Origin: Escherichia coli
Lineage (GTDB): Bacteria > Pseudomonadota > Gammaproteobacteria > Enterobacterales > Enterobacteriaceae
NCBI RefSeq assembly: GCF_036507355.1
Contig: NZ_AP027877.1
Reading direction: 5' to 3' (one strand)
DNA length: 64,000 nucleotides
The notes under the pieces: model-generated
The model's database searches: none
Told to the model about the DNA's origin: nothing
What the model saw: only the letters and a program-made list of their open reading frames with translations
Made by a program: the position numbers and the translations under genes
Part shown: piece by piece, positions 61,079 to 61,733 of the stretch
How positions within the stretch are numbered: position 1 is the stretch's first letter
Layout of the letters: each line of letters begins with the position of its first letter

Positions 61079-61345
61079 ATGGACATTAACAACAAAGCCC
61101 GCATTCATTGGGCATGCCGCCGTGGTATGCGCGAACTCGATATTTCAATCATGCCGTTTTTCGAACATGAGTACGACAGCTTAAGCGATGACGAAAAACG
61201 CATCTTTATTCGTCTGCTGGAATGTGACGATCCGGACCTGTTCAACTGGCTGATGAATCACGGTAAACCGGCCGATGCAGAACTGGAAATGATGGTCCGA
61301 CTCATCCAGACACGGAACCGGGAACGTGGTCCTGTGGCAATCTGA
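61079..61345 (+). CDS. sdhE: FAD assembly factor SdhE (YgfY / CptB)
   Basis: 88-aa [57 protein letters not shown]... Confidence 0.93.
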
Positions 61346-61733
61346 TTTGCGCGTCTCCTGGCGCGCACAGTGGCTTTCCTTGCTGATTCATGGGCTGGTT
61401 GCCGCTGTTATTTTACTCATGCCCTGGCCGCTCAGTTACACCCCGTTATGGATGGTGTTACTTTCGCTGGTGGTGTTTGATTGCGTTCGCAGCCAGCGGC
61501 GTATTAATGCTCGCCAGGGGGAAATTCGCTTGTTGATGGACGGGCGTTTGCGTTGGCAAGGGCAGGAGTGGAGCATCGTCAAAGCACCGTGGATGATTAA
61601 GAGCGGCATGATGCTGCGTTTACGTTCTGATGGCGGTAAACGGCAACATTTATGGCTGGCAGCCGACAGCATGGACGAAGCCGAATGGCGGGATTTACGG
61701 CGGATTTTGTTGCAACAAGAGACGCAAAGATAA
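61326..61733 (+). CDS. ygfX: inner-membrane protein YgfX (CptA)
   Basis: 135-aa [54 protein letters not shown]...; overlaps sdhE by 20 nt. Confidence 0.9.

Follow-up and report, generated by a model that had tools for sequence, protein, structure and literature searches.

In a type IV toxin-antitoxin (TA) system the antitoxin acts on the target of the toxin without binding the toxin itself. TA modules are typically patchy in distribution, present in several copies and tied to mobile elements. The defining type IV system is CbtA/CbeA (YeeV/YeeU), for which FtsZ and MreB are the reported targets and lemon-shaped cells the reported phenotype (PMC8621075). According to the same paper, citing Wen 2017, CbtA/CbeA and its paralogues are found in several copies in cryptic prophages. 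YgfX of Escherichia coli has been described in the same terms. Masuda 2012, as cited in PMC8621075, PMC3985639 and PMC8132199, reported that overexpression of the K-12 protein arrests growth, and in these second-hand accounts the soluble domain of YgfX inhibits polymerisation of FtsZ and MreB while co-expression of YgfY (SdhE) rescues the cells. The CbtA_toxin family is unrelated to the YgfX family (PF07254).

Studies of homologous pairs disagree. In Serratia no TA phenotype was found despite an interaction between SdhE and YgfX (PMC3985639), and in Shewanella it was not found either, co-expression making growth worse and leaving cell shape unchanged (PMC8621075). A CptBA-like pair of Acinetobacter baumannii was reported to act as a TA system (PMC8132199). 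Large TA surveys count the core sdhE-ygfX operon as a 'highly prevalent toxin' (e.g. PMC10790755). SdhE is also known as the FAD assembly factor, and covalent attachment of FAD to SdhA and FrdA is reported for the K-12 protein (PMC5042078, PMC8621075). The RGxxE motif of SdhE is needed for this flavinylation (McNeil & Fineran 2013, as cited in PMC8621075). The two genes are co-transcribed in Enterobacteriaceae, and a physical interaction of their products was reported (PMC5042078, and for the interaction also PMC3985639).

We analyzed the pair in a 64,000-nt stretch of the E. coli contig NZ_AP027877.1, referred to here as the window. The sdhE gene (ygfY/cptB) lies on the plus strand at 61079-61345, starts with ATG and encodes 88 aa; its stop codon is the TGA at 61343-61345. 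The ygfX gene (cptA) follows on the same strand at 61326-61733, starts with GTG and encodes an inner-membrane protein of 135 aa. Its start codon (61326-61328) falls within the last seven codons of sdhE, so that 20 nt (61326-61345) are dual-coding, with ygfX in the +1 frame relative to sdhE and both frames intact in the ORF listing. The lengths, coordinates, overlap and intact frames given by the original prediction were all exact, and its identification of the two genes was borne out by Pfam, NCBIfam, the RefSeq annotation and comparison with K-12. The evidence for both genes goes far beyond what chance would give. The description of the pair as a module known in E. coli as the TA-like CptA/CptB is likewise correct as a statement of the literature.

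The comparison with K-12 alleles that had been proposed as a check revealed no difference between the proteins: SdhE and YgfX are 100% identical to b2897 and b2896 of K-12 MG1655. The K-12 operon has the same overlap, the same GTG start and the same neighbours (trhA, ygfZ, fldB and xerD), and differs only at the nucleotide level, by 8 positions across the 936 nt from ygfZ to fldB. Three of these are synonymous changes in coding regions (61243, 61430 and 61682) and five fall in the ygfZ-sdhE intergenic region (60871, 60961, 60996, 61025 and 61047). RefSeq annotates the same two coding sequences with the same 20-nt overlap in both K-12 MG1655 and the best E. coli match, in the gene order bglA, yqfB, trhA, ygfZ, sdhE, ygfX, fldB, xerD, dsbC, recJ. 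The 936-nt stretch is present in 5425/5426 complete E. coli genomes, where it is annotated as sdhE and ygfX, and is at least 99% identical in 3566 of the complete genomes matched. The locus sits at chromosomal places in 5425/5426 cases among the complete E. coli genomes. Judged from these sequence matches, the window here is E. coli core chromosome. What it carries here is the already known bicistronic operon sdhE-ygfX of the chromosome, in the form found in K-12. As a textbook gene pair, correctly annotated in thousands of genomes, it matters little as a finding of this window.

Exceptions were noted in the genome survey. One of the 5426 complete E. coli genomes gave no match to the locus. 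One genome carries it in two places, and one place in the collection is on a plasmid-typed record.

At the protein level the window SdhE shows nothing that sets it apart from the SdhE/Sdh5/SDHAF2 family. It matches the Sdh5 family of Pfam (PF03937; E 5e-26, 90.8 bits against a cut-off of 27) and, over residues 1-88 of 88, the NCBIfam equivalog for SdhE (NF008130; 198.4 bits against a cut-off of 120). The RGxxE motif is present as RGMRE at residues 15-19 (R15, G16 and E19). Matches in the PDB are 1x6i (E 8e-59, residues 1-88), 6c12 (E 4e-58) and 6b58 (E 2e-51); the same protein was crystallised alone (1x6i/1x6j) and is also contained in 6c12 and 6b58, where it is named FAD assembly factor SdhE.

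To place the locus among its relatives we scanned one genome per species and obtained 208 relatives, of which the best 80 were compared. These come from different Enterobacteriaceae species and have YgfX identities of 71-99%. The 20-nt overlap, the GTG start, the 88-aa sdhE and a convergent fldB were found in 80/80 of these best 80 of 208 relatives, and a divergent ygfZ upstream in 78/80. Eighteen of the 20 overlap bases are invariant, compared with roughly 40-50% of positions in the flanking single-coding sequence, which is what dual-coding constraint predicts. The dN/dS values against the window are 0.038 for sdhE and 0.075 for ygfX. Both genes are clearly functional and under strong purifying selection. 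The N-terminal motif MxxWQxxLRxS of YgfX is kept down to about 30% identity, which supports the GTG as the start of ygfX. An alternative TTG start at 61347, just past the sdhE stop, would abolish the overlap; it was rejected because motif residues 2-11 are conserved, because GTG is present in 80/80 of the best 80 of 208 relatives, and because Shine-Dalgarno complementarity before the TTG is weaker.

One further locus in the comparison carries an unexpected label. The contig CACSKA010000005.1 of 'Chryseobacterium sp. 18061' (L083; 420 kb) contains an Enterobacteriaceae-type sdhE-ygfX with 76% YgfX identity and the 20-nt overlap, and is likely a mislabelled or contaminated assembly.

The pairing extends well beyond these species. 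At six distant loci (L086-L091), with only 27-36% YgfX identity, ygfX still comes immediately after sdhE, and every locus that reaches far enough upstream (L086, L087 and L089-L091) has a divergent ygfZ. The junction itself varies there, with overlaps of 20, 26 or 14 nt or a 30-nt gap, and the gene downstream of ygfX is fldB, queG or rsmI. Even at 27-28% YgfX identity the synteny ygfZ/sdhE-ygfX/fldB-xerD-dsbC-recJ persists. The persistence of the pair together with the variable junction indicates that the pairing is old and that the exact 20-nt geometry was frozen in Enterobacteriaceae. In the window, ygfZ lies at 59856-60836 on the minus strand (NCBIfam NF007110, 652 bits). YgfZ is a folate-binding Fe-S cluster factor, and deletion of its gene severely lowers SDH activity, to 1.9 from 30 U/mg (PMC13036160). 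Beside YgfX, the conserved neighbourhood thus encodes two factors that serve one enzyme, one for Fe-S and one for FAD, which by guilt of association would place YgfX in the biogenesis of complex II and fumarate reductase.

YgfX matches the Pfam family PF07254 (Cpta_toxin, formerly DUF1434) over residues 2-131 and profile positions 1-132 of 133 (E 7e-50, 169.1 bits against a cut-off of 27.3). Hydropathy analysis places two hydrophobic segments in its N-terminal half (about 14-37 and about 35-56). With 39 diverse members of the family as input, AlphaFold2 gave a very confident model (mean pLDDT 94.8), which contains a strand (2-8), two helices (12-31 and 36-62), six strands between 65 and 112, and a C-terminal helix (118-134). 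In the model the C-terminal domain (about 63-135) is an antiparallel beta-sandwich closed by the C-terminal alpha-helix and can be superposed on PH domains. YgfX is therefore predicted with high confidence to be a two-helix membrane hairpin carrying a PH-like domain. By the positive-inside rule, the positive charges that follow the second helix would put this domain in the cytoplasm. The nearly invariant residues of the family are G65, W77, W82, W110, D114, W121 and R122. A search with the 39 family members gave no sequence link to the bacterial PH (bPH) families of Pfam at E <= 1, and in the literature searched YgfX is not linked to a PH-like fold or to pleckstrin homology.

A PH-like domain is a binding module and not an enzyme. 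The modelled C-terminal domain resembles the binding domains of the PH superfold (PH, Ran-binding, PTB, EVH1 and FERM-F3, and the archaeal CheF), and no catalytic signature was recognised in YgfX. Such a predicted fold is easier to reconcile with a protein that binds SdhE from a membrane anchor than with an enzyme-like toxin. It also agrees with the reported binding of YgfX to SdhE and, on overexpression, to FtsZ and MreB, so that the most economical role for the protein is that of an adaptor or tether. The fold prediction and the resulting adaptor hypothesis are the modest addition of this analysis.

We interpret the locus as the K-12-form sdhE-ygfX operon, encoding a flavinylation factor and its membrane-anchored partner or adaptor and not a dedicated TA module, with a probability of roughly 0.8. 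Through its RGxxE surface, SdhE promotes the covalent attachment of FAD to SdhA of succinate dehydrogenase and to FrdA of fumarate reductase, as the literature and solved SdhE complexes show. YgfX is made from the same mRNA, its synthesis probably being coupled to that of SdhE and kept low by a GTG start with a weak Shine-Dalgarno sequence 20 nt inside the end of sdhE. It is predicted to insert in the inner membrane as the two-helix hairpin with the PH-like domain facing the cytoplasm. At the sites in this membrane where complex II and fumarate reductase are assembled, YgfX would most likely serve SdhE as an anchored partner or adaptor. The growth arrest and lemon-shaped cells reported on overexpression are then best explained by an over-dosage of the binding domain acting on FtsZ and MreB, and are poor evidence for a dedicated TA module. 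We infer this adaptor function from the fold and from the interaction reported between SdhE and YgfX, and also from the conserved proximity of ygfZ, a gene required for SDH activity.

A more specific version of the adaptor role can be put forward only tentatively. In it, YgfX recruits SdhE or hands it over at the membrane, ygfZ and sdhE-ygfX form a cofactor-maturation triad for complex II, and the toxin phenotype is an over-dosage artefact; the triad would supply Fe-S through YgfZ, FAD through SdhE and membrane docking through YgfX. The TA reports of Masuda 2012, cited second-hand, and for A. baumannii (PMC8132199) speak against an adaptor. So does the deletion of ygfX in Serratia, which had no discernible effect on swimming, unlike deletion of sdhE (PMC5042078).

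The swimming result would also fit a YgfX that acts independently of SdhE, for instance as a PH-like scaffold for another process, the overlap then serving only compaction and co-expression. YgfX evolves much faster than SdhE, falling to 27-28% identity at loci with intact synteny, and it appears in a YibN/YidC pull-down list (PMC11997395). SdhE is also known from alpha- and beta-proteobacteria and from eukaryotes (PMC5042078), yet only 133 clusters at 50% identity came out of the YgfX search. Set against so few clusters, this wide spread suggests that most SdhE proteins work without YgfX. According to the literature, most members of the SdhE family outside the gamma-proteobacteria have no ygfX partner. 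An independent YgfX is nevertheless very improbable, since ygfX, wherever its context could be seen, is directly downstream of sdhE, in 80/80 of the best 80 of 208 relatives and at the six distant loci, an unusually strict linkage. The two proteins were moreover reported to interact physically (PMC5042078, PMC3985639), and deletion of either gene lowers transcription of the prodigiosin genes in Serratia (PMC5042078).

The adaptor interpretation has also to be weighed against the possibility that sdhE-ygfX forms a true type IV TA system, in which free YgfX blocks FtsZ and MreB, SdhE counteracts it, and this is a selected function beside flavinylation. We regard this as unlikely. The claim of Masuda 2012, in the accounts that cite it, was made for proteins identical to those of the window, and the A. 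baumannii homologues were reported as a TA pair (PMC8132199), but the phenotype was not reproduced in Serratia (PMC3985639) or in Shewanella, where growth was worse on co-expression, and overexpressed membrane proteins are often non-specifically toxic, as argued in PMC8621075. The Serratia proteins bind each other, contrary to the definition of type IV (PMC3985639, PMC5042078). Pfam names PF07254 'Membrane-bound toxin component of toxin-antitoxin system', but the predicted fold of this 'toxin' is that of a binding module in which a catalytic signature is absent, and the 'antitoxin' SdhE has an independent, conserved function in enzyme assembly with solved client complexes. The transcript of cptA (ygfX) was reported to contain an RNase III cleavage site (PMC6212723), which can be counted on the side of a TA system.

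Genomic distribution bears on the same question. The arrangement is that of an adjacent, co-transcribed two-gene module, with the 20-nt overlap on one strand and co-transcription according to PMC5042078, and compact bicistronic layouts with overlapping genes are found in many TA pairs. A patchy or mobile distribution, which is typical of TA modules though not strictly defining, was not observed. Unlike the prophage copies of CbtA/CbeA, sdhE-ygfX is a core, single-copy locus in fixed synteny, in 5425/5426 E. coli genomes and in 80/80 of the best 80 of 208 relatives; its SdhE also differs from CbeA in having a housekeeping function and reportedly binding its partner. Strong purifying selection on both genes is typical of housekeeping genes. 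No genuine plasmid or phage copy of ygfX was found among 72,556 plasmids and a phage collection, and the defence models of PADLOC match neither SdhE nor YgfX.

As history the TA label is correct, but it is disputed, and the comparative genomics of the pair does not support it. The comparative results leave toxicity on overexpression standing, and remove the genomic support expected of a dedicated TA module. The invariant overlap, vertical synteny, purifying selection, absence from mobile elements and binding-module fold of YgfX favour a housekeeping role, and such comparative data could help to settle the Masuda-versus-McNeil disagreement in its favour. There is also a point of annotation hygiene: Pfam, TA databases and TA surveys (PMC10790755) that count this core operon raise the number of TA systems artificially and may lead to wrong conclusions about function.

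The searches of mobile elements did return matches, which were rejected. A tblastn search of YgfX against the 72,556 plasmids of PLSDB gave 12 matches, each to a record the size of a chromosome, to a large replicon of 0.16-0.8 Mb or to a small record. One small record was inspected, the 51-kb 'plasmid' pCUVET19-891.4 of Enterobacter hormaechei (NZ_CP114989.1). It carries bglA-trhA-ygfZ-sdhE-ygfX-fldB-xerD-dsbC-recJ-prfB-lysS in chromosomal order, essential genes included, and is therefore a chromosome fragment. Mobile or plasmid-borne copies were accordingly dismissed, the records being mostly chromosome-sized or very large and the 51-kb one chromosomal. Other PLSDB 'plasmid' records (H21-H23, H28 and H31-H32) look like chromosomes or fragments of them, some being 4-5 Mb in size. 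Mislabelled records of this kind could yield false 'plasmid-borne' calls for core genes. Two matches came from the phage collection. OR851674.1 ('Salmonella phage S.Kent 1-2-1') is an UNVERIFIED low-coverage contig of 1540 bp, and AGRM01000002.1 is a 691-kb scaffold of a Salmonella genome; neither is a phage genome.

Expression signals were examined around the operon. A Shine-Dalgarno-like AGGAAG, read from the sequence, is located at 61070-61075 on the plus strand, 3-8 nt before the sdhE ATG. The GTG of ygfX is preceded only by a weak match of the GGGA type. Predicted duplexes with the 3' end of 16S rRNA have the same energy of -4.3 kcal/mol for the sdhE and ygfX sites, and the local hairpin predicted at the ygfX GTG has no significant excess of stability over shuffled sequences (z = -1.8). 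Coupling of ygfX translation to that of sdhE is plausible. Upstream of sdhE, an alignment of 78 intergenic sequences revealed a conserved block at 61029-61043 on the plus strand, most of which is at least 80-95% conserved and which contains a candidate -10 hexamer TACAAT (61038-61043); it is a possible promoter element of sdhE-ygfX. A simple consensus scan found no full sigma-70 promoter in 60700-61900, and a consensus scan likewise found no canonical terminator for the operon. Two further blocks, ATGGTAAAAGAGC (60876-60888) and ATGCAAG (60898-60904), are at least 95% conserved in the 78 Enterobacteriaceae sequences. They lie nearer the start of ygfZ and may belong to its promoter, its 5'UTR or a regulator site.

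At the other end of the operon, ygfX and fldB are convergent and separated by a 39-nt gap (61734-61772), which is mostly filled by a hairpin GACGGC...GCCGTC at 61737-61766. The hairpin has a predicted RNA folding energy of -18.3 kcal/mol (z = -3.7), and none of 200 shuffled sequences folds as well. Its T-rich tail is found only on the fldB (minus) side, and ygfX and fldB probably share the hairpin as a 3'-end or terminator structure. Double-stranded RNA from overlapping convergent 3' ends of ygfX and fldB could explain the reported RNase III site.

Additional reading frames and fusions were also considered. A 153-aa antisense ORF (61436-61897, minus strand) covers the greater part of ygfX and extends into the 3' end of fldB; it was set aside as a chance ORF, the equivalent frame having extra stops in 74/80 species, a count that includes the ORF's own stop. 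Proteins with both the Sdh5 and Cpta_toxin domains (166-217 aa) do exist, with one or two members each from metagenome or Logan assemblies (P0002, P0003, P0005, P0008-P0010, P0013 and P0022). A programmed frameshift to an SdhE-YgfX fusion was rejected, as the frame switch occurs at different positions in the six sequences inspected, and the fusion proteins look like sporadic indels or assembly errors.

No structured RNA above threshold was found in or near the operon by Rfam (E <= 1), and a match to RT-4 near the operon was dismissed as chance-level. A sub-threshold match to naRNA4 (RF02564; 37 bits against a gathering threshold of 59.5, E 4e-4) lies on both strands at 59796-59872, in the gap between trhA and ygfZ, and is probably a REP-type palindromic element.
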